Assembly (NCBI GenBank): GCA_015232565.1
Contig: JADFZK010000003.1
Location: forward strand, 540-64,539
Source: Candidatus Omnitrophota bacterium
GTDB lineage: Bacteria > Omnitrophota > Gorgyraeia > Zapsychrales > Fredricksoniimonadaceae
Length of the DNA stretch: 64,000 bases
Reading direction: 5' to 3'
The notes beneath the pieces are model-generated. The model did not search any database, was not told the DNA's origin, and saw nothing but the letters and a program-made list of their open reading frames with translations. Made by a program: the position numbers and the translations under genes. Below are positions 19,634 through 64,000 of this stretch, piece by piece (position 1 is the stretch's first letter; the number at the start of each line of letters is the position of its first letter).

Positions 19634-19789
19634 AGCGCCTGGCCGCAAGTGCCAAACACCACTACTAAGACCGTTATCGGAAGATATAATGCCACATTGC
19701 CAAAGAATTGGATCAGCCAATCGAGCGAGTCCGAATTTAATCCGGTCAATAAAGAGCCCGGCATCAAAAAGCCTACCCCGGCTAATTGA

Positions 19790-31828: not shown

Positions 31829-31831
31829 ACC

Positions 31832-32008: not shown

Positions 32009-32076
32009 CCACCCAATAACGTTCTTGGTTGAAATGCCACCATACGGATGTTACACTTCCCTAGAGGTGACAACCT

Positions 32077-36360: not shown

Positions 36361-38269
36361 CAGAACCTCCAGCCGGGCAAGCGTAGCCGCGGAAACCCGG
36401 CCATTGGCTTTACGATCCGCCTCGATCAGGCGATTGCCTTCCTCTACTATTCCCGTGTTTAACTCAATAAAACTCCGCCACAGGTCCCACTCGCCACGAT
36501 CCTGACGCAACATCGCCCGAAAATGATCATAAGCCGGAAAGCGTATTACCTTACTGCCGATCCGAAAACCGCCGGCTTCCTGCGCATCCTCCATAAGGAT
36601 ATCCCACGCACTCTTGGAACCATAATCCCAGCACAACTCCCTATGCCGCCGGTATATTGTCAACGCGGTTACCGCAAAAGCTTCGCTGTTTTCAGCAGTA
36701 GTATCCGGATTAACTTGATGGTGAGCCAGGGAAACCAGGGTCATCAATAGTTCAAGGCGATACTCCGGGCGGAATAAATCTTGAGCCAGATGCATCACTA
36801 GCTCACCAAGCGGATCTTTACGTAAAACACCGAACAGTTCCAGCATTTCTCCACGCCGGACCGCGAGCGATCCCAAAGCAAGCAAAGCTTCCGCTACCGG
36901 TCGATCTTTCATAAACAATACATGCGCCGCTTCAGCCAGGCATTCAGTTAAATATGTTTTGTCCGAGGCCACTAATTCAGTGTTCTTATCAGTAATAACC
37001 TGAATTCGCGCAATCTTCGCCTGCTGATCCCCGGGCAGGGAATTCTTTGGGCGCGTGCGATATGAACTTGAGCTGTTGTTTTCTGCCAGCGGTAAGGCCA
37101 TGGCTAAAGCATAGCCCGGGTTTATAAGGCCGCTGGATAACAAGCGCGGCAGATCGAATATAGCATGCAGAAAATTATTCCAGCGGTGCTTCCGCACAGC
37201 CTGGTCCTCAGGCAGATCAATAGTGTAAGTGAAGAGTGCTTTAAGGGCCGCGCGGTCGGCGGCAGGATGATCCTTTAGAATGCGTTCAATAACCTGTTCT
37301 TTTGTTACGCCGTCCTTTAACTGCCGGCGCATATCGGCTTCTTCGGGCGGCGGAGCCAGTCCGCAGGAAAGCAGCAGGGCCACACAAAAGCAAAACAACC
37401 CCAGGTACAGAAACGGCGCCACAATACAGGTCAGGCCAACCGACAGACACAACAAGAACCCGCCCGCGGCTACTGCCAGCCAAAGATATGATATCCCGAT
37501 CAAGATCTCATAAACTGTCCGTAAACCGCCAGACTTCATTCCAAGCGCGGAGCCAGCGGCCAGCGCATCCGGATTCTGCGGAGCGCTCTTTTCCTGCCAC
37601 AAGGCCCACCCCGACGTCCAATTATTTAACAACCATTTATTTTGCTCCAACCGGGATACTTCCTTCCCGATCTCCTGCAAACGATCCCCGTAACTCTGCA
37701 GTTCCAGCGCGCTACGGTCCGGATCCCAGGCTTTGAGGATCCTTTCGATCCAGTGCAATTCATGAGCCAGAAACCTCCGGGCCTGGAGCTTTTCCACTTC
37801 TTCACGAGGCAAGGACAGAATGTGCTTTTGCAACCACCGGTAGGGCGGATACAGCCTGGAGTTATACCGTGCATCCGGAAGCAAATGATCCACCCTGATA
37901 CCAAATCTTATTATTCTGCTGGCTACCCAGGCTTCGGAGAAACCCAGCCATTGCGCAGTTGACTCCAGCGTGGCCCCTTCGTGCACCGCCCGGTACAAGG
38001 CCAGACGAATCAGGATGTCCTGTAATTGCCGATACGTGGGCATATCCTCAGGCATTACATGCAAACCGTTCTGCACTCCCATACCGTTCTTGAGGCTCTC
38101 ACGATACTCCGGGTTGGTAAATCGGGTATTCAGTATTGTGCCGATGTTCCGTACGTCACAACCCAGCCGGGAGGCCATTTCCTTTTCATTGGGCCAGCAA
38201 CTGGAAACCAGCTCGAGCACCAATAAGCACCAGGCCTCGTCGAAAGTATACTGCACCGGAGTGCGCGCC

Positions 38270-38400
38270 GGCTGTGAATGCCTGGCGGCGGCAGACAAAC
38301 CCAGGGAATTCTCTATTCCCAGCAAACACTGAACCGGGGTCCGCACCGGCTTTAAATGACTGGCGGCGGCAGACAAGAGCAGAGCATTTTCTATTCCCAG
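38270..38400. repeat. Tandem ~60-bp repeat (x2) inside coding sequence
   Basis: …ctattcccagcaaacactgaaccggggtccgcaccggc… duplicated; encodes LLGIENALLLSAAASHLKPVRTPVQ / LLGIENSLGLSAAARHSQPARTPVQ. Confidence 0.5.
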
Positions 38401-38599
38401 CAAACAAGGATCATGCGCAGTGCCAATGACCACGCCCGCGGCTCGAAGGTCCTCCACGGTTAATCCGCCGCGTGCGATCAAACGGTCGAGCGCATACCGC
38501 TTCATATAATTCGCCTGACGGATCTCCTGAAGAGTAGCATTCACCCCCGGCGGCACCATTGCGATCATTACCTCCAGTAAGCTTAAAGCCTTTGCCCGC

Positions 38600-44200: not shown

Positions 44201-45877
44201 CTTAAGTGGCCCTTGAATTCCGGGAGGCCTAAAGCCGCGGCAATAGTGGCGCTTCCGGGAATAGTCATCCCCACATTTAATGAACACAAGAATAGGGAGA
44301 CCGCATTTAATGCTTTAGGAGTGAACTTACTACTGCCATATTGAGCCACCACACGGCCATACTCGGTTTCGATCAAGTCGTCAAGACTTAAACCATCAAC
44401 TGTAGAAGATTGCTTCAATAATGTACTCGATTCAATGAACAAGAATCTCTTTATTGCAAGTATCGCCGCGCCGGCGTTCCCCAGTTGTAAATACCGGCGG
44501 GCAATACCCATCTGCCGTACAGACCTTTCATGAACATGATGCTGAGCCACCACATATTCAGCAAAATTATTCGGCAAAGCGAAACCCTTGAAATCATGTT
44601 CATCACCGGCGCCGATCTTGGCTCCCAATGCAAAATCTGCCGGATCGCTTACTGATGAATACCACAAGACCGATTGAACATACATCTGGTAACACACTTC
44701 CAGGAAACGCGGTATCAGCATTCTCTCCACTTCATTCAATTGCCCATCTTCCCCGAGGCCATCAAACAAACGATCCATCTTACGGTCAATTACACCAGGA
44801 GCATCCATGGCTCGCAGAATTACATTGCGCACAATGAACTTCTCCGCATCGGTAAAACCACATGCTTCCAATGCCGCATTCTCAACAATGCACTTCAGCA
44901 AACTGCGCAATTTCTTGGACTCAGTAGCTACCGCCATATTGAACAAAGCGGGATGCTCCAACATAAATTGTTTCCCAGCTGGCGAATGGATCAGGAACGC
45001 ATACAACTGATAATAATTCGCCGGCAGGAAATTAACGCCCCATCTGGCTTCTTCCGGATGCTCCAACAGATAGCGCGTACTGTCGGACAAAGATTCAACA
45101 CCGCCGGTAATTGCCGCACATACAGAGCTTAGCTCGTGATTGCCGTTCTCAACTTTAATCCGGGCGCTATCATACATTCGGTTAAACATGGCCGTGAATC
45201 TCTGAACATCGTCGAGAGAACTCAAAAGGACAAAAGGTATCCGATGATCGATCCGGCAGATCATAAGGGAAGCCCGGTACCAATCCGGCAGCTGTTCAAG
45301 ATGAAGGACCACAACATCCGGACGGAAACGCCGGATCTGGCGTTCCAGTTCATTATTGAATTCCAATATCAAAGCCTTAACAACCAGGCCTTTATCCTGG
45401 GCACGAAGAGTTCGCAGCAATTTATCGGTGGGAACGCCTCTCTGCGCCAGTACCAAAACCCTCCGCCGGGCCGGCACCCCCGGCGATGCCACCGACAGGC
45501 CAATGCCAAGAGCGCCGCAAAGCATACCGGCGTCATGGCCGTAACCTGTCAGATACCCCAGCAGGCACAATGTGCTGGCGATGGGCAAGAGCGCGTAAGT
45601 CAGCATCGCCGCGATGCGTGGCAACTTTTTGCCAGCACTCCGCTTCCAGGCATCCCATAATATTCCGCCCAAACCAATGACTGCCACGACATTACTGGGA
45701 TCCAGCAAATTTGACGATGGTGTTTGCACAGCAGGTTTTGATGATACGGGAAGGTCGTTAAGGGCGCGTAAAGATGAAGCATCCGGCAATACTGTTAAGG
45801 TAACATAATGCTCAACTGCGCCCTGGATCTGCTCAGCGATAGAACGATCCGCGGACACAGCGAGCTCGAACACCGTG

Positions 45878-45940
45878 CCGGAGCTGGACCTTTCCGGCAG
45901 GATGCCGGGTCCAGCGAAGTGCCGGTCCCAGTCAGACCGG
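45878..45940. repeat. Hairpin repeat element (same family as 18043-18149)
   Basis: ccggagctggacctttccggcaggatgccgggtccagcgaagtg plus ccggtcccagtcagaccgg. Confidence 0.6.
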
Positions 45941-45944
45941 CCGG

Positions 45945-47300
45945 TCATCTCCGGGGGAGCGCGGCGGCCGATGATCGCAAAGAGCCAGTCCAGATCCATT
46001 CGTGACACAGCATATTCCTGCCCGCGGAACGTGACCTCGGCGAAATACACCCCGCCGGCGCCTAAAGTAAAACTTAAGCGCGGCCAAGCCTCGCCCGTAA
46101 CAACCGCGATCCGCGCCAGGCCAAAAAGCTTCTGCTCCAAAGTTTGCGTGTCTACCGCGCACTGCCGTGCAAGTTCCAAAGCCTTCTGCCGCTCGGCTTC
46201 TTGCGCGGCGGGTGAATCCGGGAACAATTGCGCACAGAAATCTTTAGGCAACATCTCAAGGAGTTCTTTGTCCGACACGGTCTCACCGGACAAGCCGGCC
46301 TGATTCAATGATTCTGACAATCTATTGAGTTTGGCCCGTAATTGTATCAATTCTTCAGGCTTACTCCGAATATAGTACGGCGGCATTGACTGCCGCGATT
46401 CTACGTAATAAGCATGCGCATGCTCACCTTTAGCCGCAAATTTCCAATTGCGGATATTGCGCCAATAATCTAGCCACAACTCGTTTGCCGTGCTAATCGG
46501 CCCAGGTATTTCAACCATAGAACGCAAAATCTTCACGGGCATCCCTATTTTGGCATTCCCAACCACCTGCTTCCACCGGAGAATAGCCTCACATACCCCC
46601 GCCAGTCGTTCGGCCATCTTCTCGGCTTCTTCGGGCTTCCAACCCATCTCTCTTGTCAAGTCCTGGAACAAGACACTCCGTCGACGAACTTCCGCTTCAT
46701 AAATGCCCCATTCACGGCTATCAGGTATACGACCATTATCTTCTTTGAAGAAAGCTTCAAACGTGTTTCGTGTCATTAGTGAGCCAAAACTCTGAACATA
46801 TGGCATTCCGTAGTAGGGATCAGAAACCAGAACCCTAAATCTTTCGGAGAAACCACGATATTCAACTGAAGGTTCAAAGATCTCAACCAGTTTCCGGACC
46901 TTCGTAACATCAAAAACATCCAAACAAGAACCACCAATATTATTTTCGAATATTGTCTTATCGAACCGAGGCATATTGCACGCGATCAACGGCCTTGCAT
47001 CATAATTTTCTGCCGACGAACAATTCCCCATAACTGCGATTCGACCAATCCCGTACAAAGCATCGCAAACCTTCGGGGAAACAATAACTCCTATACGCGC
47101 CTTGAACGCGCCAAACAATGTTGCCGCGGCGGCCTCGACAGCCGCTGGTTGAGCCGCACTCATGGGCAATGCCGGAACGACCCCGACTGCGGCGGCGATC
47201 TGGCTGGATTGTTTAAGAAAGCTCCGGCGAGATATTCCGCGGTTCAGCCACTTGACCGCATTGGCCAGGGCCTGTATGAACACTTCACGAATATTTCGCT
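45945..47300 (-). CDS. Tat-signal protein, duplicated-module copy 1 (paralog at about 52050-53430)
   Basis: GISRRSFLKQSSQIAAAVGVVPALPMSAAQPAA signal at about 47215; C-terminus …GAGGVYFAEVTFRGQEY…; start uncertain. Confidence 0.4.
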
Positions 47301-47649
47301 CGGGACCCGGCACCTGGGCCTCGGATGAACCAGCCTCTCTATTGCGCGGAGCCAGAAGAGCCTGGATGGTACCACGCAATGAACGGCGCACGGGCTGCGA
47401 CCGGGGCAGTTCACGCCGGGCCGACACTGGTACAACAACCGCACCATTAGAAAGGCCCGCATCCACAACAGCGCTTTGCGAAGCTGTAACCACCATCTGC
47501 GCAGGCTTCAGTATACGCGCAAAGAATTCACGTCGATCTGCATTATGCGCAGGCACTGCCGCGGAACTTCTTAACGCGGCCGGGCGATGCAGTATTAGCA
47601 CTGAGAAGCCGTAGAGAATAGCGCCGGCTGTAATTAGCGCCGGACAGCC

Positions 47650-48990
47650 CAGCGCCGCGCCCACTGCCGCAATGAACGCTCCGGGACCGATATATGTTAC
47701 AGAGTCGCCGGCCGATTCTTCTTCCGAGCTATTACCAGTGCCCGTGGCAAATTCCCAGACGCCGGTATTATTGCGCCAGTCAGTCTCCATGCGCTCTATG
47801 GCTTCTTCTTTCAGGAGTTTAACACGCTGATATTCAGCCTCATTCCTGGCCTCTTCTTCATGATACCTCTCACAGAAATCTTTTTCCGCTTGTATTCTGG
47901 CTTCTTCCCTGCGCAATTGCTCAATATATGCATCTTGGTGCTTATTAAACCACGGATTTGAAACCAATAACCCAGGATCCATTCCACGAAGTATCTGATC
48001 AACCGCGACAACTCCAGGGTTATCAGGATGCTCACGCGAAAGCTCTCTGACCCTGCCATGACTCATGCCCTTTAGATGCAGATAGACCTTTCGTGCTTGA
48101 TGAGCCGCTACCATATATCGATATTTATCCCCTTCCTCCTCAAATGGCAGGTCAAAACCGAACCGGTCCTTAAGCCCAACCACTGCTTTGCCAAAATCAA
48201 TTCCTTCAAAAGTACGCATTGTTTGATAACTAAAACCGGTATATCTTGCTCCGGGAGAAACGGTTACAATTTCGGGGGTTTCAACCGCTATGGCCATGCG
48301 ATCGGCCAGTTCCCGGTTCGATTGGCCTATCCCCAACGTGAAAAAACCATCGACAATAGTCCGGAACTGTCTTACTGTCGGCACCTGGAAAGCAGGGTCG
48401 GCCAATTTTGCTTGAAGAGCCAAACGACAAATAGTGAAACAATCCTGTTCCACATTCACAACTCTCCCAAGGTCTATACCCTGTTGACAAGGTTTCACCA
48501 TGCCATCCAAATGAAATGTCACCGCTCCTAATACCTGTAATTTCTCCCACGAAAGATTCTTCAACCACGCCGGCGTGAACGATGCCCCTTGCACCATAAC
48601 CGACGGATTAGCCAACACGGCGCCAGTGAGCACGCTGGCGCTTCTCAGGAACCCCTTGCGCCCGGCGCGGAACTGAAGATCTGCCCACACTGCGCGCGCG
48701 AGTTCTTGTTCCGGCGTTATCATGGCCAAAGCTTCACGATTCAGCCCCATCTGACGAACCATCCGGTTGAGAGCGGCTTCACGGGACGCGTTTCCAAATA
48801 TCAGCTCGGCAATGTCCGCCGCAACACGGGCCACCGGATCGCTGAATAGATTACGGATCCGCCAAGCCAGGCCCGGCGCCTGTACCAAACGCTCCAATTC
48901 CGCAACCCCCGCCTTCATCCATCCCGCCACCAATTCATCAGGTGAAATATTTATGGAGCGTGATGCCGGGGCTACCGGTACATTAGCCAT
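47650..48990 (-). CDS. Hypothetical protein present in only one copy of the duplicated module
   Basis: ATG at 48990-48988 verified (MANVPVAPASRSINISPDELVAGW…). Confidence 0.35.
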
Positions 48991-49170
48991 GCCCATCAGC
49001 GCCGCAGGCACAATGGCGGCCAGGACCACCGGGATCCACACAGTCCAACCGCCTTCGGCAAATCCGCAAGTGAATATTACGATCAAAGCCAAAGAAACGC
49101 CCCGCAGGAGCCGGGCGTTGACAAGGCCCGTCAGGCGTGTTAGATTCAAACTAACCGGAAGGACAACATT

Positions 49171-49398
49171 ATGGTAAAACATTTCAAAGCGATCATTGAA
49201 CAGGAAGCCGATGGCGGCTACTCGGCACATGTTCCGATCTTCCCCGGCTGTGCGACCCAGGGTGAGACCCTCTCCGAATGCCTGGCTAATATTAAAGAAG
49301 CCGCCACTCTTTACGCCGAATCCCTTATCGAGGACGGTATCCCCCTGCCGTCCGTTGAACCCGAAGTTATGTTGCAGAACATCGAAGTAACCGTATAA
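49171..49398 (+). CDS. hicB: HicB-like antitoxin
   Basis: MVKHFKAIIEQEADGGYSAHVPIFPGCATQGETLSECLANIKEAATLYAESL. Confidence 0.65.
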   Translation: MVKHFKAIIEQEADGGYSAHVPIFPGCATQGETLSECLANIKEAATLYAESLIEDGIPLPSVEPEVMLQNIEVTV

Positions 49399-49401
49399 CA
49401 A

Positions 49402-49632
49402 ATGACCAAACTTCCGCAAATATCCGGCAAAGAACTTGTGCGCGCCCTGCAACGTTCGGGCTTTACGATACGTCGCCAGCGGGGCTCCCACGTTATCATG
49501 GTGCATGCCACTGACCTGGCCCGGCGCTGTGTTATTCCGGTTCACGGCAATACCGCCATTAAACCCGGAACCCTGCATTCCATCCTTGACGGCGCCGGCT
49601 TCACAACCGACGAATTGCTGGATATTATTTAA
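49402..49632 (+). CDS. hicA: HicA toxin
   Basis: SGKELVRALQRSGFTIRRQRGSHVIMVHATDLARRCVIPVHGNTAIKPGTLHSILDGAG matches the HicA/YcfA family. Confidence 0.7.
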   Translation: MTKLPQISGKELVRALQRSGFTIRRQRGSHVIMVHATDLARRCVIPVHGNTAIKPGTLHSILDGAGFTTDELLDII

Positions 49633-49989
49633 ATCCGCTGCGGAACTTCGTAACACTGCCGGGCGATACAGTATTAGCACTGAAAAGCCGTAGAGAATAG
49701 AGCCGGCAACGATAAGCGCCGGGCAGCCCAGCGCCGCGCCCACTGCCGCAATTAACGCTCCGGGGCAAAAATAACTCCTGGAAGACGCAGATTCATTATT
49801 TACCACTTCATTCATTTGAAAATTAACACCCCTTGAGCCCCTCTGCCTGCGCAATACTTCCTGCATGGCCCTGATCGCCGGGGACGAAACACTATAAACT
49901 CTGGAACTTTCGGCGCGCTGGACCGCAACGGCCGACAACAATGCCCGTAATAATTGCCGATGATGTTCCGCCCCGATAAAAGCCGCCTT

Positions 49990-50850
49990 CACCTGGGCCA
50001 CAATTACCTCCAGCGCCGCCGGATGAGTAAACAAACCAAAATGTCCGACTGCCACCCGGGTAACGCCCCCAATAGAAGCCTCACCACGACGCAAAGCACT
50101 GCGGAATACCGCTTCATCTGCCCTGGTAAAGTAGGTGCCACGCAAGAAAACAAACGGCCGCTGATGGATTTCCCGGGCCGGACCCACTGCCGATACCGAC
50201 GCAAAAACGTGCCGGAACTGCGCCAGGCCTGCCGGGCTGTCCTGGGCCAGGCGCGCCGGACTGAGAGGATCGAACACCGCCAGGGCCGCATCCTTGGCAT
50301 GGCCAATACCCAGCCAGCGTACTAACGCCTCCTGTATTCGTACGACCCGCGCCACAAAAGTATCCGACAACCCCAAAGCTTCCGCCGACCCGCCCCACAA
50401 GGGGCCCACCAAGACCAGGCGGGGCTTGTTTCCGGCACATAATTTTTCACCCCGGTTGGCGGCCAGTTCCACTGCCCGGGCCAGCACCAGATGCCCCAGG
50501 GAATACGCCACTATCACCAAATCACGCCGGGGATACTTTTTATGGAAATCACGAATTGCATTCAGCACAATAACCGCGGAACTATTTAATGGCGCAAAAT
50601 GGTCATACGGCACTACGATCATTTCGGCCAGGGGCAGCAACCGGGCCCTTAAGGGCTGCAGGTCGGTACAATCAGCATCCACGCCGGGTATCACCATTAC
50701 AGCCCTGGCAGTATTCGAACCAGGACGGTTCAGGAACGTCCGGGCTTTAAAAGCCGTCACCACTTCGCGCCATTGCCGGCGTATGCGCGGATTTAAGTTG
50801 TCCGGGAAGAACCGCCAGGAACAAGGCGACGCCCTAACCGCGACCACCAT
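49990..50850 (-). CDS. Alpha/beta-hydrolase (lipase/esterase-like) copy 1
   Basis: LVIVAYSLGHLVLARAV (G-x-S-x-G-like nucleophile elbow) at about 50485-50520 verified; ATG at 50850-50848. Confidence 0.5.
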
Positions 50851-51982
50851 GAAAGGCAGGAATAAAATGCGGCCGGCATTGCGTAAGGCCAGACCCAACG
50901 AGAACGGGCGACGCAGTATTAGCACTGTAAAGCTGGAGAGAATAGCACCTGCAACTATCAGCTCCGGGTAGGCCAGATGGTTTAATGCCGGCCCAACCGC
51001 AACCAACAATGCCCCCACGGTAATTAAAAGTAAGGCCGGAAGCACTACCGAAGCTTTATTGCCTTTCTTTTGATTCTCCTGGATCTTTCTGAAAAGATCC
51101 AAAGCCGGCGTATTGGAGCGCGGAGCTGTACGAGCCAGAAAGCTTTTTGTTTTATTCGGATCTATGCCGCCCAACTTGGCGTTTGCCGCTCCCGATCCAG
51201 GGCGAGCGTGGGTTATTTGGACTCGTACATCTACCAGACCGTTGTTCACCACTTTGGTTGCGGCTCCAGTCCGACGACTAACAGCCACGCCACTAACGAT
51301 CACTACCTCTCCGCCGGCGTTGGACATGCTATCGAATAGCACTTCACCATTAGCGATGGTCAGCTTGAAATCCAGACCATCAGGAACATAACCAATGTTG
51401 CCAGATTTAATAATGCTGGCACGTAGTTTTTGCACTCCCCTATACCAGGACCACAGCCGGGCAACTATTGCTATCAGCACACCTGCGGACACCAGAACGC
51501 CGGCGAAAGCCAGCAAGATCCTTAAATCACGCGGCGCATTATTTAACGAAAAGCCGCAGGTGAAGACCACGATCAATGCCAGCAGGCTCAATGTCCTGGC
51601 GAGAGGAAGTATCACGCAAGTCAGCACGGCCGCGATGCGTGGCAGTTGTGCACGAGCACGTTCCTGTGCTTGATGTAAGATTACAAAGATGCCCCCAATA
51701 GCGGCACCATTAACAATAGGCGAGACAGAAGAAATTTCCGGTTTCGTAGGGGCCGACCTTGCTCCAGTCCCCCGAAGGGGGATGTCGGCCCGGTGAAGAA
51801 GTGCTAGCGGCTCGATCCGCTTCTTATGGCGGGTCGACACAAGGTCGACCCCTACGCTCAGTTTTAATCTATTAAACACATACTGATCAGGCAATACTGT
51901 TAGGGTAACATGATGCTCAACCGCGCCCTGGATCTGCTCGGCGATTGAACGATCCGCGGACACAGCGAGCTCGAACACCGTG

Positions 51983-52045
51983 CCGGAGCTGGACCTTTCC
52001 GGCAGGATGCCGGGTCCAGCGAAGTGCCGGTCCCAGTCAGACCGG
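51983..52045. repeat. Hairpin repeat element (third locus)
   Basis: Same sequence as 45878-45940. Confidence 0.6.
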
Positions 52046-52049
52046 CCGG

Positions 52050-53430
52050 TCATCTCCGGGGGAGCGCGGCGGCCGATGATCGCAAAGAGCCAGTCCAGAT
52101 CCATTCGTGCTACAGAATATTCCTGCCCGCGGAACGTGACCTCGGCGAAATACACCCCGCCGGCGCCCAAGGTAAAACTTAAGCGCGGCCAAGCCTCGCC
52201 CGTAACAGCCGCGATCCGCGCCAGGCCGAAGAGCTTTTGCTCCAAAGTTTGCGCGTTTACCGCGCACTGCCGCGCCTGTTCGAGGTCTTTCTGCCGCTCG
52301 GCTTCTTGTGCAGCGGCCTGACCGGCTGGCGAATCCGGGAACAATTGAGCGCAGAAATCTTTAGGCAACATTTCAAGGAGTTCATTTTCCGACACGGTCT
52401 CACCGGACAGGCCAACCTCATGCAATGAGCCTGACAATTTATTAAGTTTAGCCCGTAATTGTATAAACTCCTCAGGCTTAATCCGATAGACGGGCAATCT
52501 TGGCTGTTGCAACAATTGGCCTTGACGCAACGCTTCTGCGCGCTGAACATGAATACACTCGTTCTGCGCCGCCCATCTCCATTCGCGCACACTTTCCCAA
52601 TAATCCAGCCACAACTTGTTTGCCGCGATGATCGGCCCGCGATCTTTAACCATTGAACGCATTATCTCCGCCGGCTTACCTATTTTCGCATTCCCGGTGA
52701 CCTGCTTCCACTGCAAGACAGACTGACAACCCATCTCCAGATTCCAGGCCATTTCCTTAGCCTCCTCGGGTTTCCAGCCCATCTCCCGTCCCAGGTTCTG
52801 AAGCAGAGCTTCCTGTCTACGACCTTCCGCCTCATAAACTTCCCATTCCCGGCTGTCTGGCGTACGACCATTATCTTCTTTGAAATATTTTTCAAACAAA
52901 TTTCGTGGCGGTATTTTACCAAAACCATCAACAAGAAGCGGCGTTCCATTGGGTTGATAAACCACACCACTTTCTCTTTTGGTTAAACTGCGATATCCTT
53001 CGGAAGGTTTAAAAATCGCAATCAGTTCCCAAACAGCTTCTACATCAAAGATATCCGAACAGACACCTCCAATGTTAACCTTAAACATGTCATTATCGAA
53101 TCGGGGCATATTACACGCAAATGTCGTCTTCCCCGGACTGTCAGACGACCGACAATTTAAACCATCAGCGGTTATAATGATCTCCCGTAAAACATCACTG
53201 ACTATCGGAGAAACAATAACGCCTATACGCGCCTTGAACGCGCCGAACAATGTTGCCGCAGCGGCCTCGACAGCCGCGGGTTGAGCCGCGCTCATGGGCA
53301 ATGCCGGCACTACCCCGACCGCGGCGGCGATCTGGCTGGATTGTTTAAGGAAGCTCCGGCGGGATATTCCGCGGTTCAGCCACTGGACCGCATTGGCCAG
53401 GGCCTGTATGAACACTTCACGAATATTTCG
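52050..53430 (-). CDS. Tat-signal protein, duplicated-module copy 2
   Basis: Nucleotide duplicate of 45945-47300 (blocks 51965-52320 and 53272-53800 match 45860-46300 and 47140-47600). Confidence 0.4.
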
Positions 53431-54114
53431 CTTGGGACCCGGCACCTGGGGTTCGGATGAACCAGGCTCTCTATTGCGCGGAGCCAGAATAGCCAGAATG
53501 GTACCACGCAATGAACGGCGCACGGGTTGCGACCGGGGGAATTCACGCCGGGCCGACACTGGTTCGACAAGCTCACCATTGGAAATGTCGGCTACGCCCA
53601 TGTCATTCTTTACAGCCGAAGCCCTGCCAGAACTTTGGGCCTGTACAGTGCCGATCCTGGACAGATCAGGCTCAACACTTTGCGAAGCTGTAACCACCCT
53701 CTGCGCAGGCTTCAGCATAAGCGCAAAAAATTCACCTCGATCTGCGTTATGCGCAGGCACTGCCGCAGAACTTCTTAACGCGGCCGGGCGATGCAGTATT
53801 AACACTAAAAAGCCGTAGAGAATAGCGCCGGCTGCAATTAGCGCCGGGTAACCCAGCGCCGCGCCTGCCGCCGCAATGAACGCTCCGGGGCAAATATAAC
53901 TCCTGGAAGACGCAGATTCATTATTCACCACTTCATTCATTTGAAAATCAACACCCCTTGAGCCCCTCTGCCTGCGCAATACTTCCTGCATGGCCCTGAT
54001 CGCCGGGGACGAAACACTATAAACTCTGGAACTTTCGGCGCGCTGGACCGCAACGGCCGACAACAATGCCCGTAATAATTGCCGATGATGTTCCGCACCG
54101 GTAAAAGCCGCTTT

Positions 54115-54975
54115 CACCTGGACCACTATTGCCTCCAGCGCCTCCGGATGAGTAAACAACCCGTAATGTCCAACATCCACCCGGGTAACCCCGCCAACAG
54201 AAGCCTCGCCACGGAGCAAAGCACTGCGGAATACCGCCTCATCAGCCCTGGTAAAGTATATGCCGCGCAAGAATGCAAAAGGCCGCTGATGGGTTTCCCG
54301 CTTCGGACCCACCGCCGATACCGACGCAAAAACATGCCGGAACCGCGCCAGGCCAGCCGGGCTGTCCTGCGCCAGGCGCGCCGGGCTTACCGGATCGAAC
54401 ACCGCCAGGGCGGCATCCTTGGCATGGCCAATACCCAGCCAGCGCACCAACAGCTCCTGTACCCGTACTACCCGCGCAACAAAAGGATCCGACAAACCCA
54501 AAGCTTCCGCCGACCCGCCCCACAAGGGGCCCACCAGAACCAGGCGGGGCTGGTTTCCGGCACATAATCTTTCCCCGCGCGCAGCGGCCAGTTCCACCGC
54601 CCGGGCCAGCACCAAATGCCCCAGGGAATACGCCACTATCACCAGGTCGCGCCGGGGATACTTTTTATGAAAATCACGGATAACCTTCAACACAACAGCC
54701 GCGGAAACAGTCAATGGCGCAAAATGGTCATACGGCACAACGATCATGTCGGCCGTGAACAGCAGCAATTCAGCCCTTAAAGGTTGCAGGTCAGTACAAT
54801 TAGCATCCACGCCGGGTATCACCATTACCGCCCGGGCAGTGCTGGAATCAGGACGGTCCAGGAACGTCTGGGCCCTAAAAGCCGTCACCACTTCGCGCGA
54901 TTGCCGGCGTATGCGTGGATTTAAATTGTCAGGGAAGAACCGCCAGGAACAAGGCGACGTCCTCACCGCCACCAC
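54115..54975 (-). CDS. Alpha/beta-hydrolase copy 2
   Basis: Duplicate of 49990-50850 (block 54079-54567 matches 49954-50440); …DLVIVAYSLGHLVLARAVELAAARGE…. Confidence 0.5.
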
Positions 54976-56899
54976 CATGAAAGGCAGGCACAATATGCGG
55001 CAAACATAACGCAGCACCCAAGCCAGCACTTCGCGCATCTTCGCCAAAGCCGCCAAAACAAAACCAAAGCTTTGCACGTTAATTATTACCACGGCTACCA
55101 GCAGGGCCGCCGCGCCGATCCAGAGCCATCCTGTCGGCAGGATGCCGGCTATGCCGCCGGCCAGGGCCGCACTGCCTGCAGCGGCCGTCGGTACTACCGC
55201 CGGCAAGGTAACCGGCGCCAAACATGCCCCGGCTATACCAATAAGCCGGCCAAAGCGCAGGCCTTTCCTGACCAGACCGGGTACGCGATCACCAGAAATC
55301 GCTGCCGCAAGCGCGTCTTCCATATATGTTCCGGAAGGGATAATAAGCGTTACCTTTTGGGTACCGCCTTCATTGCGCTCAACTTGCACTGCGATTTCGT
55401 GCCGGTCAAGTAGCTGGCCTTCTTCCCTGCGCACAGCAGGATCCCTATCATCCAGGATCACCGTAGCCCACGGCACGAGGTGGGCCCAGGGACAGCCGCT
55501 GGGAACGCGCACGATCCGGTCTTCAAGTACACCGGCCGGTGACGAAGAATTCAACACGTCAGGTACCGGCGCAGCCAATTCACGACGTAATAGTTCTTTA
55601 GCCAAAGCGGTATCCCTGGCATTTCCCTGACTCCAGGCATCCATGAACAATGCCTTTAATGACCTGCGCTGTACCGCCCCACCAGCCGCCCCGGCGAGCA
55701 TGGCCGGACGGATATCCACCGCCGGCAAGCGCTTACGCTGACCCAGCACCGCCTGCACCTGCGGCCACATAATAGCGGCCGCCTGCACCCAAAGCGCCCG
55801 GCGCTCGTCGGCTGAGGTGGAACGGAACAGGATCTCGTGATTCTCCATCAAATATTTATCGGTCAAGAGATAACAGAGCCACAGCCGCTTGTTGCCGGAG
55901 AGGCTTAAGTCGGACAGCGTTTCCGGACGCACAGCCACCCGGCGCAGGGTATCGCGCAAGTCAGGCAGGTGCAGCTCCGCGAAGAACGCGTACTGGGCAC
56001 GGAAAACAGCCGCCTCATCCAGCGGCGCCTGCCCCTGAAGCGGAGCGGCAAACTCGTTGAACAGACACGCAAAAGGCTCGTAGCCGGCCTCCGCCAGTTC
56101 CCGCCGGGCGTTGGCAAAAGAAAATGCCCCGCCCCTGGCCGCCCAGGACAGGAACTCCAGCTGGGAGCACAACTCTTCATGTTCACAAGCCATCACTTCG
56201 GACAGCAACAAGGCATATTGCCCCTGGCTCATACGGGCGGGAGAATCACTGATAAGATTCGGGCGCTCCTGCAGGAAAACAAAACCCGCCGCTTCCCGCA
56301 CTATCGTCGAGATCACTACCACAAAGGCCAGAGCCGAAGTATTATCCGCCGACCACATGGCGTCCAGCCTGGCGACAGCCGGCATATCAGCGCTGATCAT
56401 GATACGCCCGGTTAAAGGATCCCGGTACTTGGAAAGGTTAGTGCCGAACGGGCCGTCCGTTATAGCGCTTAGCCCGTTACTGCGGATATAAGCCGCATAT
56501 GTTTCCACCCCGGCCGCGCCCGGCCAGCCCAGCTCACGCAACCGCGCGGCCGTTTTATCTGCCAGGCTCAGTACCACCGCAGTTTCCCCGGCAGAGAGCC
56601 GCACCGCGGCTGGTTGTCTAACACCGGCCTTTTGGGCCTGCCGAAGGGCAAAATGGTGCCATCCCAGTGCGCCACCTGCGACGGCCAGACCGAACAGTGC
56701 CAGCCAGCCTCGACGAGAATACACTGCCGGACCGGCCTGCTTCGTGGACGAACGACCCGGTAAATTGCTTTCATTCAGCCTGTTCGCTTCGGCGAGCACA
56801 TCAGCGATCATCCGCTCTTTACTACGGACATTCGTCTCACCGGCGATCTGTAATAACTGCCCATAGAACCGGGAAAGACGGCCCATAAACACAGCATCA

Positions 56900-58050
56900 C
56901 GCCCGCCAGTCGATCCCGCAACACCGGCCCGATGCCGGCGAACCTGTTCCACATCACCATAAAAACAAAAATACAGGCAATGGACATCCCGGACCGTTAA
57001 ACCCCGCAGAAAGTCTTCCGCCGAAATATCCGTAATATCATCGTCCATCTTGCCGGTATCCAGCAAATAACCGATAGTTCCGTGATATTTCACATACGAA
57101 GCAAAACGCCCGGCTTCGAGCGCCGAATAGCCTAAGCGCCCAAGCTGATAACGAACGATCCGATAGCCATTAAGATTGTGCGTATCGGGTTCAAAGCGAA
57201 ACCGGGGATCCTTGCCAAAATCATGCAAAAATATTGTTTTCACAACATCCCGCCTGATCTCGGGCGGCAGAGCGTTAAAATTATCGTCACCACAAACTAC
57301 CTCGACCGCGCCCAGAGTATGATCCCCCACCGAATCCGCATGCGAACCCCACTGGGCCATATGGCGCACCACGCCCCAGCGCGGCAAAGCCGCGGCCAGA
57401 ACGCCCGTACTATCTGCGAGCCTAAGCTCAAAAAGAGAATTAAAACCTTCTTCGAATCTTCGCCGCAGGGCTGCATCTTCCTTACAAGGGATCCGCTCTC
57501 TATTAACGCAAGGCGCACCGGTACCGGCCTCACACTGCGTCAGCAGGTAGCGAGCGATCGCCAATGCCTCCAGCCATTGCGGCTCGGCGGTAAAACCCGA
57601 ATAATTCGTTCCCAGGAAATCTTGATGTTCGGCAAGCAAGCCTTGATCGGCAATCCAAGTAATGGTCAGGGCATTAATAACGGAGTCTGGTTCCAGCGGA
57701 TACATAAAATGCAACATTTCATGCGCCATCACAATTTCCAACTGCCTGGGAGGCGCACGCAAAGCAAAGTCGAAAGCCACCGCAATACGCTGGCTCCGGA
57801 TATCGGCTTCGGCCAGGATCTCTCCCTGGGCCGCAATAATGGCAATATTGGACGGATTCACCCGGCCGGCTTCGGCGCCAAACACCCGCCCAAGAGCTAT
57901 ATGCGCCGCACCTAATGCCTCACGGGCATGATCTGCGGCCATATTTACCTGCTCAGCACTCAACGCGGGTGCCGCCTGCCCTTGCGCCCGCCGCGCCGGA
58001 AAACGTTTTGACGGAGTTCCGGCCCAATCACTGATCGAACAAAGTGCATT
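56900..58050 (-). CDS. Region containing an HD-phosphohydrolase motif (TIFLHDFGKD, about 57200-57240) and an upstream HEXXH zinc-peptidase-like motif (VMAHEMLHF, about 57750)
   Basis: Motifs translated and anchored by hand; whether this is one gene or two is unknown. Confidence 0.35.
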
Positions 58051-59249
58051 CAAAGCAATATCCATTTTAGTCATCGGCGCCTGCTGAACACCCTGAAGAT
58101 AAATAGACAGCGAAGTATCCGGATTCTGCAATTGGGCAATAATGCCACCCATTGTATCTGGCGTTACCGGAATAAATACTTTGCCTGAAGAAGAGGTCTT
58201 TACCCATATACCAATATCGTCCCAATGATAGCAGCGTCTAAGAACTTGCCACAAATAGCCAGGTTGCCTGCAACTACCTGCCGTAATCAGCGCCTCCACA
58301 GGAACAATGAAGCCGGTATAGACCTCGCCGTAGCCAGGCTTATCTTCGGCTTCCTGCGCAAGTTTCCGTTCAAACTCTTCTGCCCCTGAATCCGCCCTCA
58401 TAGTGTTTAATCTGTCCCGTTCTTGAACAAACATCGCCATCTCTCCCACGGTAAGTTTCAGCCCTATGAGTAAAGCCATCTGCCGTTCTCTCTTTACATA
58501 TGTTCTCAGCAATTTCCACCGGGTAGCACTGTTATTCTCTGGATCAATCCCCAGCTCCTGCAACAATTCCCTGCGAACAGAAGGCCATTGTTCATGATGG
58601 TCTACAAAACCTCCGGCAATGGTCAAGTACCTGTTATATTTACTGCTTCTACGCAGTATCAACGGAATATGCCCCAGATTATCCACCGCCAAAACATCTA
58701 CCACCACCGTAACGAAGCCGCATAACAAGGCCACTATGATCGGCAAAGGTCCAACATAAACTTTCTCCCTGTCGCAATCCTCTTGCGTTAACGGTCTCAT
58801 CATAGGGGCATAACACATCTTTCCGTCTTCTCCAACTTTTCGTTCACAAAGAACCATGCAATCGTCGCCAAAATAATGACCCGCGGCCGGATCAAAGTTC
58901 TGTTCCAACTGGGCCATACAAGCCTCGATCTGCTCTGAAGATAAAGGCTGGAATTTTAGGTCGCCCCTGCCAAGCTCCTTTGATCCATCCTGACCCAGTT
59001 CCTGTAATATCTTCCTGACCTTGGGCAAATACAATGCCAGATTTTGATTTTTCGGCAGGGCCTTTGAGTTCTTTTTACGATAAACCACCACTACCGACAA
59101 GATCACCAAAGCAAAGATCACAATCGCCAGCGTCGGCCAGGTAAGCGTCGGCCAGACAGCCGCCCACAATTGGGGGTCAATACAATCTCCCCACGTCATA
59201 CTAACCGCGCTAATTTCCTGTTCAGCCAACAGAGTAACCGGCAAAAACT

Positions 59250-62200
59250 GGGCCACCTTTTCCATTAATGCAGGCCGACCCGCAGAAGCCTCTTCAACAA
59301 GCCTTACATTGCCAAACTCCGGATTATCGGTCACTTTCCATTCACTTTCACACCCGCGAATATCAACAATAAAATCCGCCGCCCACAAAGTGCGCTGTTT
59401 GTACCGGTTCCAGCTCGGGATCAACCCATGGGTAAGGAACCGTAATTCAAGGTCGGCAGTAGCAGGGTTCATACTACGCGTACGGATCTCAAAATGCGCG
59501 CGGGTCCGGTCAACATTATCCTCCAGGCTCAGCGTAAGATCGTAGTACGGTAGAAAATCTTCCCGCAAAGAGTACTTGCCATCCACCAGGACGATCATGC
59601 CTTTTGTCAGCTCCAAAGTAACATCTTCCCGGGCATGCTGGCCGCGAATGTACGCATCCTGTATAACCACCGTCCCTTGCTCTGCCCCCGAGAGGCCAAA
59701 TTCAGAAATGGCCTTTAAAACAGCACGGATAGCGGCATGATCCCAGAACACTTCCTCCTCGGCCAAAAACTCATCACCCGGGCGCACGAGCATAGTCAGG
59801 CTGGCGCCGATCAGGGCGGAATCATCCTCCGAAAGAGGGTCCCCAAGACTGGCCCTGGCCGCTGCATCCCGGAATAGTTTTGGCTTCAGGCAGAAATCCT
59901 GTCTGAAGATCGCAACTTTGTGGCCCCTGACACGCAAAATTTCGGCAACCCCGGACAGCAGGGTGGTCTTCCCCGAGCCCGACGCCCCGTCCAGAGCCAC
60001 CAGGGTTAACGTACCCGGCCCATTGTTTTCCGCGATCCCCGCGGCGATATCGGCGATCTTTTCTCCCACACCGCCCAGATTGCTTCGGAAAAGTTCCTCG
60101 TCCGCCATCTTAACCGGCCGGCCGGTAGCCGGATCGATGACCGGAAAACCATAAAGCCCGTTCCTTTTCGCCCACGCATGCACCGCAGCCGGAACTATGG
60201 CCGGGTCGCGGGTGTTCCGATAATAACGGGACGAATTGCCCAGGTCGATCTGCGGATGCTGTATCAGGACCATTTCCAGCTTATGCTCACAGCCCACCTG
60301 GCCGCGGATCTCTTCAGCAATACGCTCAAGCTCATCCGCAGTCAATGTGGCTCCATACTCTCCCCGTTGAACCCAGCCGATAACAATCTTGTGATTGCCC
60401 GCCATGCGGGGGCGATAATCTTTATAATCTGTGTAAAACTGCTTAATGTAATGCCGCACACGTATTTCACTCTCAATGCCCAGGCCATAAGTTACCTCCA
60501 GCGATTCTTGCTGGTTGCCATCCAGAAAAAACAACAGATCCTTGAAGCCTTCCCGGCCATGCCCAAGGTCGGTCATTTCGATCAACGGACTATAATCTTT
60601 AACCAATTGGGAGGTGATCCGGTGCCGCGCATCATATGGCGCCTCTTCCTTACTATCGACGATCTTGAATTTTATTTGCCGATCGATCCGGATCAATATC
60701 TTGTCCAGTTTCAACAGCATCAAAGCAAATAACGGCGGAATAATATGACCGTAATGCGGCGGATTGGCGGTAATGCTCCAGAAAAAGATCTTCTTTACCC
60801 GGCGTTCCGTCCCGCCGATGGAACACGGATTTGCCGGACCGTAAAATTTCGTCTTAACCTTGACCCAGGGATGAACAACACCGGAAAGGATCAGTTCCGG
60901 AATGCCTTGATGCACAGTTTGCAAAGCCGCATACACTTTGGATATCAGCGGCTCCGTTTTCTGATCAACCGCCGGATCATGTTCACGGATCGCATGGTCT
61001 ATTTTATCCCAGGCTGCGGTAAGGATCCGGACCTCATGTTTTATAAAAAGGCTGGTCTTCCAGCTTTCCTCAACCACCACTCCCGCACGCGCCAGGGCCT
61101 GGCCTTGAATAAATTTAAGATACTCGGCGAGTTCTTTCGGCATTAGCATCTGGATCAATTTCTGCGCCTGCGCTTCCTCAACCTGCGGCTCCTGATACTC
61201 CGGGAATTTCTTATGTTTCAGCTCGTGCAACAGGTTGTCCCGGACAAACCACCGGGCCATAGCGGCGGAATGCTTTAACAAGCCCGGCAATATATCCAGA
61301 AAAGCCAGATGGATATATAGCTCATTCTCCTCAACATCAATAGCGCAAAGCGCCCCGCCGGTCTTTCCCGCATCACCGGTAATAATGACTGTCAGGTCCA
61401 CCGGCAGAGTGTTGAACTCAAACTGGCCCAGTGCCGCGTTCTGCTCCGGGGTAAGCCGGCTTTCATACTTTCCCTCGGGATCAAGGACCACGCCCGTATC
61501 ATTGCCATCATATTCCGCCAGCAACTTCTTGCTTAAACGATAGGGCGACAACCGCAGGGGGGTCGAGCCCGCCTGCGTTTGTTCATGGGTAGTTACAGGA
61601 ACCAAGGCCAGCAAGCAGTTCAATTGGCCATAAACTTGCCTCAAAAGGTTATCCGGTAATACTGAAGTATTCAGCCGTCCTTCGATCTCGCGCCAACGCG
61701 CGATATCAAAATCATTCAAGGGCTTATTTTGAAGTGTCGGATCCACAAAACTCCTCACCAACAACACAATGCCATACCCCATACTTAAAACAGCGTCTTC
61801 AACACTGGCAGCACGCAAATACTGGTTTTGTAAAATAACATCTAACTCGGATAGCTGATTCTTATAAGCAGCCAGGTCTCCGGCTGTGCGCACATTGGCC
61901 GCCAGTTCAGCGATCAAGGTCACCGCCCGGTTAATCTTTTCAACCGCAATGTCACTAATACCGGTATCGACCCTCGCGATCCCAGCCAAGGCTGCTTTGG
62001 ATATCGGCCATGCCAGGCCTGACAAATCTGGCGCTGGCACATGCGCAGGCGCGACAACTTTCACGGCACTAGTCACAGGCGCAAGAGCGGCGGTCTGACG
62101 ACGCTCCTCCGACGAGACAAGCGGCATTTCCACTATCTCATATTGCTTGCCGGCCAGCACCACAATAACCTGCGACGCCAGATTTAATGCTTCATGAGTT

Positions 62201-64000
62201 ATTACAAACGAAACACTGGCAAAACGAATGGCAATGTTTTTATCGGTAAGCGTGATTTCCTGCGAAGCACCATTAGCGCCCTGGACTATGATCTTAACCC
62301 CCATGGCCAGAAGCTGTTCTTTAAGCAAACTGGCAACATCGGCCTGAAGCTTAGCGGCAATACATTGTTCGGAAAGAGTGATGCTGATAGCGTAATTCTT
62401 TACCTCAACGCTCCGCACAGCCTCCGGAGGAGCATTGGGGCTGTGGGCGGCCAGAATAGCCTTTACAATAGCCGCCGGTGACTGGCGAGAACAAAGATCC
62501 TCTGCTTCCTCGATCTCTTTTAACAATGCCGCGGCTTCTGCCATCTGCACCGGGCTGGTAGTTGCCGCCCCCACCAACTCCTCTTCTTTCCCTTTAACTT
62601 TTTTCATATTTCTGCTCAACAAGTCAGCGCGTTCCTTGATGCCGGGCAGTGCTTTTACCAGCGTATCCCGCTTGCCGGTCTCCCGCAACTGTGCTTTCAC
62701 CGTCACGTTATGCCGCATAAGATACCAGATCGTTGCGGCGATCAAGACCAGGCCAAGAACACCCAGGCCCGCCATTCCCCAGATCATCACGCTATGCGTC
62801 AATAATCCGTGTAAAATATAGGTATTGTAAACCAGCGGTGAGATCACCAAAGACACCACCGTGATAGCGACCATCATCCGGCGTACCACGCTCATCGTAT
62901 AATCCAGCGCCGGATTGCTAACCAGATCCCAAAGGCTCAAACGCCAGACCGCCGTCAGCAAGATCGCGGCCGCCGCCACATGCAACAACAAACCTCCCGG
63001 GATCAGCGCGGTCAGCAGGAATGGCACATAGAAAACCAGGAGGCCAGTCAGGGCAGTTGTGGCATACGCCACGGCGCGTTGATTAACAGAATAATTCGAA
63101 TGCCCCCGGTGGGTAGCTATCAGAAAGCTCACGCTAAAGATCGCGAAAATGGCCATAACCGCAAACCCGGCGAAGATACCGCCCGAGAATAACGAATGGC
63201 CTTTAACGGCAAAGGCTGTAAAGAAAAGCCCCAGCATAGCCGCCGCCGCTTTAATGTAGAATACACCCGACGAACAAGGCAGAAGGTCCTTACTGCCATA
63301 AGTATCAAATATCCGCCGGGTAGATTTATTCTTTTCAATAACACCTTGCAGCGCTTTATATATGTCTACTCTGAGGTCTTTTGTCAGTGCCGCTTCCGCA
63401 TCCGTCGGATCGATTTGCACGCGGATCGTATCCGCATTGATCTTTTCAACAAATTGATTTTTCCCGTCAGAAAGCACCTTAAAGATCATACCCAAATTTT
63501 GCCCGGCCGATTCCAGCTGTTGTCGCGAAATAATGCCCTTCTTTAGCACGTCCTTTTCATCTTTCGCTTCAATAATGTCCTTCACCACTTTATATAATTC
63601 GCTCCCCAGGGCTGTTGCTATTGCGTCCTTGCGCTTTGCTAACCTTGCATTCATATCATCTTTTGACAATCCAAGGCCACTGAGGATCGGCAGATCAGTG
63701 CGCACGCGGATCGTATCCGCATCGACCTCCTCACCAAAGTTTTTGGTCCCGTTGGTAAGCGCCTTAAAGACCACGTCCCAGTTCTGCCCGGCCGCTTCCA
63801 CATCGACTCGGGTAATAACCTTCTCCGCCACAAAAATATTACGGAAAGTCTCCAGGCCCGGACCCTTAAAGTTTGCCAGGAAGAATGAATTATAAAAATC
63901 AGCCAGCATAACCCCCAGGATGTTCACCGGGATCTGGAAGCCGGCAAAAACCAGGACGCGGTTAAAGAAGTCGCGAATATTAATGAAGTTGCCAACCGCC
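59250..64000 (-). CDS. Large multidomain membrane protein, 5' end beyond the window: N-terminal ~100-aa repeats, polytopic TM block, HEXXH motif (LLHELKH, about 61240), HxGH nucleotidyltransferase-like motif (ITANPPHYGH, about 60745), uridine-kinase-like P-loop (LDGASGSGKTTLL, about 59960)
   Basis: All three motifs verified by back-translation of the indicated lines; the frame is open to position 64000. Confidence 0.4.

Follow-up and report, generated by a model that had tools for sequence, protein, structure and literature searches.

A conserved nucleotidyltransferase–kinase cassette within a giant open reading frame of an Omnitrophota bacterium

The DNA analyzed here is a stretch of 64,000 nt from contig JADFZK010000003.1 of a Candidatus Omnitrophota bacterium (assembly GCA_015232565.1), and this whole stretch is referred to as the window. 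An earlier note, made from the letters alone, had described its last 7 kb as a cluster of nucleotide enzymes that could form a coupled signaling or defense pathway. Two of the domains in this region, a NadD/NMNAT-like nucleotidyltransferase (NT) and a uridine-kinase-like P-loop kinase, constitute a fixed two-domain unit, which was found in many giant open reading frames (ORFs) of Omnitrophota and in a few proteins of normal size. Only this NT–kinase cassette is conserved as a unit, and the remaining domains are a lineage-specific mosaic. The flagged 7 kb probably lies in the interior of a single giant multi-enzyme ORF of the Omnitrophota type, whose product would be membrane-anchored. The earlier description was partly supported: its domain identifications held up well, better than the raw profile scores had suggested, but its coupled-pathway interpretation was not supported.

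The giant genes of Omnitrophota represent several percent of genomes that are themselves very small. They are expressed during predation, and annotation is almost entirely lacking. The cassette is a foldable unit that could be cloned and assayed, and it would offer a first biochemical entry point to the parts of these giants that are predicted to face the cytoplasm.

The giant open reading frame

The giant ORF is located on the minus strand at 3307..64000, with its stop codon at 3307–3309, and no other stop interrupts the frame up to the right edge of the window. Its length is 20,206 codons counted from the GTG at 63927 and 20,230 codons (60.6 kb) counted from the window edge, which is a minimum. 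Residues are numbered from GTG 63927, and residue i begins at nt 63927 − 3(i − 1). All features of the giant frame given below are on the minus strand. The five flagged motifs are all present within it: LLHELKH (aa 899, nt 61213–61233), ITANPPHYGH (aa 1052, nt 60745–60774), the P-loop segment LDGASGSGKTTLL (aa 1312, nt 59956–59994), MAHEMLHF (aa 2067, nt 57706–57729) and FLHDFGKD (aa 2233, nt 57208–57231). These sites had been called a cluster, but no separate genes are involved; they are modules of a single ORF that exceeds 20,000 codons.

Upstream of its first start codon (GTG 63927) the frame remains open as far as base 63999, and no Shine-Dalgarno sequence was found before this GTG. The gene start is therefore probably outside the window, and the frame is probably longer than the window. 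The tandem repeat that had been placed at the N-terminus is a real one, with copies at aa 37–90 (63658..63819) and aa 132–183 (63379..63534) that share 44% identity across 54 aa (BLASTP, E 2e-14); with the frame open upstream, the repeat is probably internal and not N-terminal. Copy 1 matched no family in Pfam or NCBIfam. The repeat is followed by a hydrophobic block (aa 222–400, 62728..63264), for which a Kyte-Doolittle scan predicted about six membrane-spanning segments and not the eight proposed earlier. The same scan detected dozens of hydrophobic segments spread along the ORF.

The codon-position composition was gene-like along the giant ORF, with G at position 1 ranging from 0.30 to 0.47 and GC1 higher than GC2. 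The exceptions were four 200-codon windows, which coincided with genes on the opposite strand. One may ask whether the frame is an assembly chimera or a chance-open run of decayed genes, as its large internal duplications and the genes embedded on the opposite strand could suggest. Such an origin is hardly credible: a stop-free frame of 60.6 kb cannot arise by chance, the gene-like composition extends along its entire length, relatives from independent assemblies share the same open-frame property, and peptides from a giant frame of this kind have been reported in V. archaeovorus (10.1101/2023.11.21.568195; PMC10066038).

Giant ORFs have been described in this phylum. In Ca. Velamenicoccus archaeovorus LiM, such an ORF specifies a protein of 39,678 aa, for which 42 transmembrane helices are predicted and few domains annotated (PMC10066038). 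The "Archaeovorin" giants of West-Roberts et al. contain numerous transmembrane regions together with Nudix, peptidase, methyltransferase, glycosyl-transferase and pyruvate-phosphate-dikinase domains, all of them highly divergent (10.1101/2023.11.21.568195). A 2026 preprint defined a class of "multi-enzyme metabolic cluster" with kinase/phosphotransferase, Nudix, HIT and HD domains, and it interpreted the long proteins with transmembrane segments only (46%) as having their domains in the cytoplasm and their anchor in the inner membrane (10.64898/2026.06.07.730766). The domains of Omnitrophota giants are poorly conserved and form long branches (10.1101/2023.11.21.568195; PMC10066038).

The ORF in the window resembles these giants in being a single ORF of more than 20 kb (here at least 60.6 kb), in its many hydrophobic segments, and in its mosaic of divergent Nudix, PPDK_N, peptidase, kinase and HD-type domains with few confident annotations. 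It differs in that no SecA-DEAD, C39, HEAT or glycosyltransferase domain was detected in the window, and in its sigma-70 region 2 and M50 modules, which were not highlighted for the published giants. The enzyme domains, whose concentration had been regarded as unusual, are real, but such a concentration is a published hallmark of the multi-enzyme giant proteins of Omnitrophota (10.1101/2023.11.21.568195; 10.64898/2026.06.07.730766). In the giant protein, soluble enzyme-like modules are probably strung between hydrophobic segments, and they would face the cytoplasm, with pairs of membrane helices as tethers.

The nucleotidyltransferase domain

Bare motif strings are weak evidence, and domain-level tests therefore had to decide. 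The observed and expected counts were 2 and 0.5 for H.GH, 1 and 0.4 for the strict P-loop, 5 and 0.4 for HEXXH, and 15 and 18 for the HD dipeptide. In direct scans of the translated segments against Pfam, NCBIfam and PDB, the single match over a curated threshold was a Nudix domain, which was absent from the earlier note. The NT, kinase and HEXXH domains were recovered through family profiles, but the HD segment stayed below threshold.

The NT domain comprises aa 1029–1266 (60130..60843), and a conserved helical extension of ~70 aa lies directly N-terminal of its core. As a single sequence, the HxGH segment matched nothing in PDB or in Pfam, and a family profile was therefore needed. The NCBIfam NadD models gave sub-threshold matches (E 0.009–0.07), and TIGR00482 scored 16.1 bits, far under its cut-off of 112 bits. 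Profile A1 was built on the alignment of 26 NT family members, six of which weakly matched Pfam CTP_transf_like (PF01467). In a search of PDB with A1, 11 of the 14 matches were NadD (best 8aih, E 2.3e-5), and both the HxGH and the ISSTxxR motifs were aligned. HYGH of the window (aa 1058–1061, 60745–60756) aligned with the NadD motif, and SSRYYR (aa 1232–1237, 60217–60234; family consensus SSTYYR) aligned with ISSTKIR of NadD. The invariant columns of A1 were G36 and H37, which are the GH of HxGH, and S209, Y212 and R213 of SSTYYR, the counterpart of ISSTxxR.

The AF2 model of the domain, computed with the family alignment, had a pLDDT of 89 and a pTM of 0.85. The top 50 Foldseek matches in PDB were all adenylyltransferases of nicotinate mononucleotide (NaMN) or nicotinamide mononucleotide (NMN), with a probability of 1.00, target TM-scores of 0.62–0.76 and identities of 13–20%. 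The fold assignment is firm as judged from this model, although the curated score cut-offs for the NadD family were not reached. The HxGH segment had been noted as an adenylyl/cytidylyl-transferase signature, and the profile and the model agree on a NadD-like adenylyltransferase. The domain shares with NadD/NMNAT the Rossmann-like fold, the HxGH motif after strand 1 and the SSxxxR motif near the C-terminus. In contrast to NadD/NMNAT, it is ~55 residues longer, has the N-terminal helical extension and is joined to a kinase as part of a giant protein.

The kinase domain

The kinase domain comprises aa 1291–1542 (59302..60057), with the Walker A motif GASGSGKT at aa 1314–1321 (59965–59988). In the family alignment (A2), D24, G25, K31, D55 and R193 were invariant. 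The A2 profile matched 1rz3, a uridine-kinase-like structural-genomics protein, in two stretches (E 1.1e-12), and human uridine-cytidine kinase 2 (UCK2) over 145 residues, well past the P-loop (E 4.7e-7). Its match to nicotinamide riboside kinase 1 (2.4e-4) was restricted to the P-loop region. This kinase, Nrk1, is related to the uridine-cytidine kinase/PRK family. Pfam PRK (PF00485) was found in 13 of the 26 kinase family members, and it exceeded the gathering score for the cassette kinase of one relative (L006). On the window kinase itself PRK reached E 0.086–0.11 and 12.7–13.1 bits, under the gathering score of 22, and the NCBIfam matches of the P-loop segment to a nucleoside/nucleotide kinase model (2e-6) and to udk (8e-5) were both sub-threshold.

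The proposal that the P-loop segment is uridine-kinase-like was supported at the family level by these profiles. The kinase resembles the uridine-cytidine kinase/PRK family in its Walker A motif, in the conserved Asp after strand 2 and in the alignment with UCK2, and it differs from that family in an insertion of ~60 aa after the P-loop region. The other kinase of the giant ORF (aa ~16,482–16,533) has just the P-loop in common with the cassette kinase family.

Conservation of the cassette in relatives

A search of the word-indexed protein database with aa 1–2640 returned no match, and 1,600 aa of the window's own sequence found no related loci in the genome, viral and metagenome collections. 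With the NT profile, the word-indexed search returned two short proteins only. An exhaustive phmmer search with aa 1001–2200 against 1.84 billion cluster representatives retrieved 124 relatives, 39 of them with E < 1e-30. The strongest matches spanned aa ~1003–1550 without a break at 34–40% identity and were within proteins of up to 7,852 aa. Some small proteins among these relatives held just one half of the cassette, and weaker groups of matches covered aa ~1990–2130, the region of HEMLH, and, in a few cases, the Nudix region.

The genome collection (one genome per species) was searched with an alignment of six NT members, and 21 loci were returned. Twelve were labeled Omnitrophota or Omnitrophica, seven carried the automatic label Planctomycetales or Planctomycetia, and one each was labeled Pseudobdellovibrionaceae and Anaerolineae. 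Giant open frames were present in 19 of the 21 loci; 18 were open throughout the DNA examined (up to 20.7 kb) and one from 1 kb on. Overall, the cassette's relatives were almost confined to giant frames from Omnitrophota metagenome assemblies. The kinase followed the NT domain directly in 20 loci, and the contig of the remaining one ended inside the NT domain. The genes and domains around the cassette in relatives included HAD hydrolases, DUF218, a second PRK-like kinase, PPDK_N/phosphoenolpyruvate-utilizing domains, DUF4922 and Nudix.

The repeat, the transmembrane block, Nudix, HEMLH and HD of the window were not colinear in the 21 loci at the sensitivity of phmmer, with the exception of locus L011, where HExxH copies were found upstream of the NT domain. 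A fixed triple of HEXXH, NT and kinase was considered as a rule and rejected, for just 3 of 55 relatives had an HExxH motif in the 170 aa that precede the NT domain. Co-occurrence of the flagged families in other genomes had been suggested as a check; only the NT domain and the kinase were conserved together.

These results bear on the coupled nucleotide-signaling or anti-phage defense pathway that had been proposed, for example a set of effectors that consume nicotinamide adenine dinucleotide (NAD) or nucleotides when triggered by infection. NadD-like, Nudix, HD and P-loop folds are common in defense systems, and toxin–antitoxin genes are abundant in and around the giant ORF. Nevertheless, the PADLOC models gave weak generic P-loop and HD matches (E 0.002–0.06) and no system-specific protein, the domains lie within one 60-kb ORF and not in an operon, and the NT–kinase pair was the only part kept together in the 21 relatives, where Nudix, HEXXH and HD were not colinear. 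The neighbors in relatives were HAD, DUF218, PPDK and sugar-metabolism genes instead. A signaling or defense role is very unlikely on this evidence. For that claim the outcome is deflationary, since real domains are present but no such pathway is indicated.

HEXXH, Nudix and HD segments

Both HEXXH motifs that had been pointed out lie in a conserved metallopeptidase-like domain, of which the first copy is weak and partial. This first copy (HELKH, aa 899–967, 61027..61233) matched the C-terminal half of the HEXXH-domain profile (profile positions 83–145) with independent E-values of 1.5e-4 to 2.3e-4 (hmmsearch). The second copy (HEMLH) is in a minigluzincin-like domain of ~140 aa (aa 1985–2137, 57517..57975; profile A3). 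In total, 17 copies of the domain were found in 12 long proteins, sometimes two or three per protein, and HExxH was retained in 16 of them. H85, E86 and H89 were invariant in the A3 alignment, and the conserved E97 and H117 are candidate third zinc ligands. Pfam metallopeptidase families gave scattered, single and weak matches on the copies. Judged by this conservation, the motifs mark a real family of small metallopeptidase-like domains.

The assignment of this family to the minigluzincins is borderline significant at the profile level: A3 matched projannalysin MJ1213 (4qhf) over 61 residues with E 3.8e-4, itself a borderline value. The likeness to the minigluzincins (projannalysin MJ1213 and proabylysin, minimal M48/M56-like scaffolds) lies in the small size and in the strands that lead into an invariant HExxH helix. 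The minigluzincins are free-standing, whereas the HEXXH domain is embedded in giant proteins, often in several copies. West-Roberts et al. suggested that embedded peptidases might cleave the giant proteins (10.1101/2023.11.21.568195). A possible role of the HEXXH domains is to cleave the giant polypeptide, and the minigluzincin-like domain is a testable candidate for such processing.

The divergent Nudix domain (aa 1741–1814, 58486..58707) scored 25.6 bits with Pfam PF00293, above the gathering score of 21.1. Its Nudix box, GFVDHHE-QWPSVR-RELLQELGI, was read at 58546–58611.

An HD phosphohydrolase-like domain is probably present at aa 2200–2330 (56938..57330), as suggested by three profile matches, all sub-threshold: Pfam HD (PF01966; E 0.027, 15.2 bits against 22), GlnD HD (E 0.016) and Cas3 HD (E 0.048). 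The HD string noted earlier (57208–57231) is part of a visible H...HD...H...D pattern in a segment predicted to be all-helical; the string is certain, but its domain is backed weakly. No homologues of the region were detectable, and the word-indexed protein search with the HD segment was empty. A single-sequence AF2 model of the region had a pLDDT of 40 and was discarded as unusable.

Two further hydrophobic segments were predicted by the Kyte-Doolittle scan, one after the kinase (aa 1591–1619, 59071..59157) and a possible second one just ahead of Nudix (aa 1726–1745, 58693–58752). A clean transmembrane helix at aa 1722–1752 was dropped as a candidate since this stretch overlaps the first Nudix strands, and therefore only its N-terminal part may be transmembrane. 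The segments at aa 1591–1619 and ~1726–1745 may form a hairpin, which would place Nudix, the second HEXXH domain and HD on the same predicted side of the membrane as the cassette.

Possible function of the cassette

We propose that the cassette kinase would phosphorylate a ribonucleoside-like substrate, and that the adjoining transferase would then adenylylate the product. The leading candidate is the conversion of nicotinamide riboside or nicotinate riboside to NMN or NaMN and further to NAD or nicotinate adenine dinucleotide (NaAD), which follows the logic of NadR. This route is favored because the transferase matches were all NadD/NMNAT and the kinase is closest to ribonucleoside kinases, and we regard it as a tentative reading of the cassette.

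In NadR, COASY and HldE, a kinase and a transferase act in sequence on one substrate, and these proteins use other domain pairs. The cassette resembles NadR in the order of an adenylyltransferase followed by a P-loop kinase, and two consecutive salvage steps on one polypeptide are proposed here as well. The differences are considerable. The kinase of NadR belongs to a different P-loop family, whereas the window kinase is Udk/PRK-like and no match to the NadR kinase was seen; the transferase of NadR is of the archaeal NMNAT type; and an N-terminal helix-turn-helix (HTH) domain is found in NadR but not in the cassette. The resemblance is a functional analogy and not membership in the NadR family. 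A pair of adenylyltransferase and uridine kinase is not mentioned in two studies of giant proteins (10.1101/2023.11.21.568195; 10.64898/2026.06.07.730766), and neither this NadD-like/Udk-like cassette nor the minigluzincin-like domain that recurs in long proteins seems to have been reported before.

Several observations weigh against an Omnitrophota-type giant with an NAD-forming cassette. The first His of HxGH is replaced by Asn in most relatives (NPLNWGH, compared with PPHYGH in the window). The NT and kinase sequences of the window fell under every curated family cut-off, and their assignment rests on family profiles and the model. The Nudix box (G-x5-E-x6-RELLQELGI) deviates from the canonical GX5EX7REUXEEXGU, with a loop one residue short and Gln in place of the first Glu of the EE pair; Nudix activity may therefore be altered. 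No SecA-DEAD-like domain, which most published giants possess, was detected in the 20,000 aa scanned, and the ORF continues past the window. An NAD pathway is already present in more than 75% of the genomes of Omnitrophota (PMC10066038). Finally, one locus (L009, 9635–11521) carries the cassette as a standalone protein of 628 aa on a GC-rich (62%) contig labeled Anaerolineae, and its neighbors are two PMT_2 GT-C glycosyltransferases and a GNAT gene, not NAD genes. L009 may reflect horizontal transfer or mis-binning, and its context may point to the cell envelope.

The main rival to the NAD route is that the cassette acts on a substrate other than a pyridine, for example a sugar, a polyol or a cofactor precursor, which it would activate for the synthesis of an envelope or surface glycan; the position of the L009 cassette between two glycosyltransferases would fit this. 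Its models would be HldE, which combines a kinase and an adenylyltransferase for ADP-heptose, and the pair of PanK and PPAT in coenzyme A synthesis. Type I PanK is a member of the same PRK/Udk family, and the Asn in HxGH implies a non-canonical NadD active site in most relatives. In addition, glycosyltransferases and sugar enzymes abound in the giants of Omnitrophota (10.1101/2023.11.21.568195; 10.64898/2026.06.07.730766). Against this, the top profile and fold matches of the NT domain were to NadD/NMNAT only, with no PPAT, glycerol-3-phosphate cytidylyltransferase or HldE among them, and the best extended match of the kinase was uridine-cytidine kinase, a nucleoside kinase. A non-pyridine substrate is a doubtful prospect, somewhat more so than the NAD route.

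It was also considered that the enzyme-like domains were captured, evolve fast and are largely inactive, and that they serve as filler or binding modules of a giant surface or adhesion protein. Their strong divergence with scores below curated cut-offs, the E-to-Q change and shortened loop of the Nudix box, and the continuation of the giant frame, as apparent linker, across antisense toxin genes would all fit such a role, as would the poor conservation and long branches of published domains (10.1101/2023.11.21.568195; PMC10066038). However, the catalytic signatures were the most conserved columns of the alignments (G36, H37, S209 and R213 in the NT domain; D24, G25, K31, D55 and R193 in the kinase), HExxH was kept in 16 of 17 domain copies, and the cassette was intact in 20 of 21 loci. 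With active-site columns preserved in this way, inactive filler is an unlikely explanation.

Antisense toxin genes

Three toxin genes are located on the plus strand, antisense to the giant ORF: a PIN_3 gene at 31418–31825 (29.8 bits, above the gathering score), a DUF5615 gene at 19241–19630 (77 bits) and a PemK/MazF gene at 6437–6820 (46 bits). A PIN-like copy at 3311–3676, also on the plus strand, lies at the 3′ end of the ORF. The Pfam matches of PIN_3, DUF5615 and PemK/MazF were near full-length, and these toxin genes are intact. The presence of antisense toxin genes within the frame is a striking side observation. The giant ORF stays open through all four, and its coding signature collapses exactly over them; the four genes are all in the same relative frame. 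When they were resampled synonymously, the probabilities of no stop on the giant strand were 0.064, 0.007, 0.39 and 0.13, or jointly ~2e-5. The unbroken frame over these genes is direct evidence, at the sequence level, of selection on the full-length frame.

A DUF5615-like ORF was also observed on the minus strand at 6167–6544 of locus L005, a metagenome-assembled genome contig (JBDRIY010000058.1) with an Omnitrophota giant frame on the plus strand, and it matched the window copy with E 8e-10. Antisense toxins within a giant frame therefore occur outside the window as well. Direct repeats of ~160 nt with 83% identity flank the antisense DUF5615 gene at 18788–18947 and 19658–19820, and they encode duplicated segments at aa 14720–14750 and 15010–15040. 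Their spacing of 870 nt is exactly 290 codons, and an insertion or duplication of this length therefore preserves the giant frame.

A bolder scenario would combine these elements in a polyprotein tethered to the membrane, which would be translated over its full length and then cut by its embedded minigluzincin-like proteases. One module, released or tethered, would be a novel NadD-like/Udk-like bifunctional enzyme that uses scavenged nucleosides to form NAD or a different adenylylated nucleotide. The frame over the antisense toxins would be kept stop-free by selection, and the giant gene and these addiction modules would stabilize or regulate each other. As a whole, this scenario is improbable.

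Other features of the giant frame and its flank

Rfam and tRNA scans of the window were empty. Elsewhere in the giant ORF, PPDK_N was detected twice, together with Peptidase_M50, sigma-70 region 2 (Sigma70_r2) and HTH domains. The sigma-70 region 2 lies at ~30,100–30,330 (aa ~11,200–11,263, 43.9 bits), and a weaker second copy at ~10,280–10,480 (aa ~17,818–17,882). The Peptidase_M50 site-2-protease module is at ~22,290–22,520 (aa ~13,803–13,879, 44.2 bits), and the two PPDK_N-like modules are followed by receiver-like stretches. Such regulatory-type domains are unexpected within a membrane-tethered giant protein.

Large internal duplications were observed between ~47,700 and 55,000 of the window (aa 2968–6129), in blocks of 400–800 aa with 60–89% identity: aa 2968–3389 corresponded to aa 4344–4764, and aa 3301–4122 to aa 5368–6129. 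A module of ~130 aa ending in LIHEARVMAYPES occurred three times (aa 16754, 18050 and 19882), with identities of up to 98%.

The region 3′ of the giant ORF is a toxin–antitoxin-rich flank, at 248–1353 on the plus strand and 1666–2340 on the minus strand. It contains a VapB-like/PIN pair (PIN, 42 bits), a further small module of two ORFs and a DUF2959 lipoprotein gene (42.8 bits).

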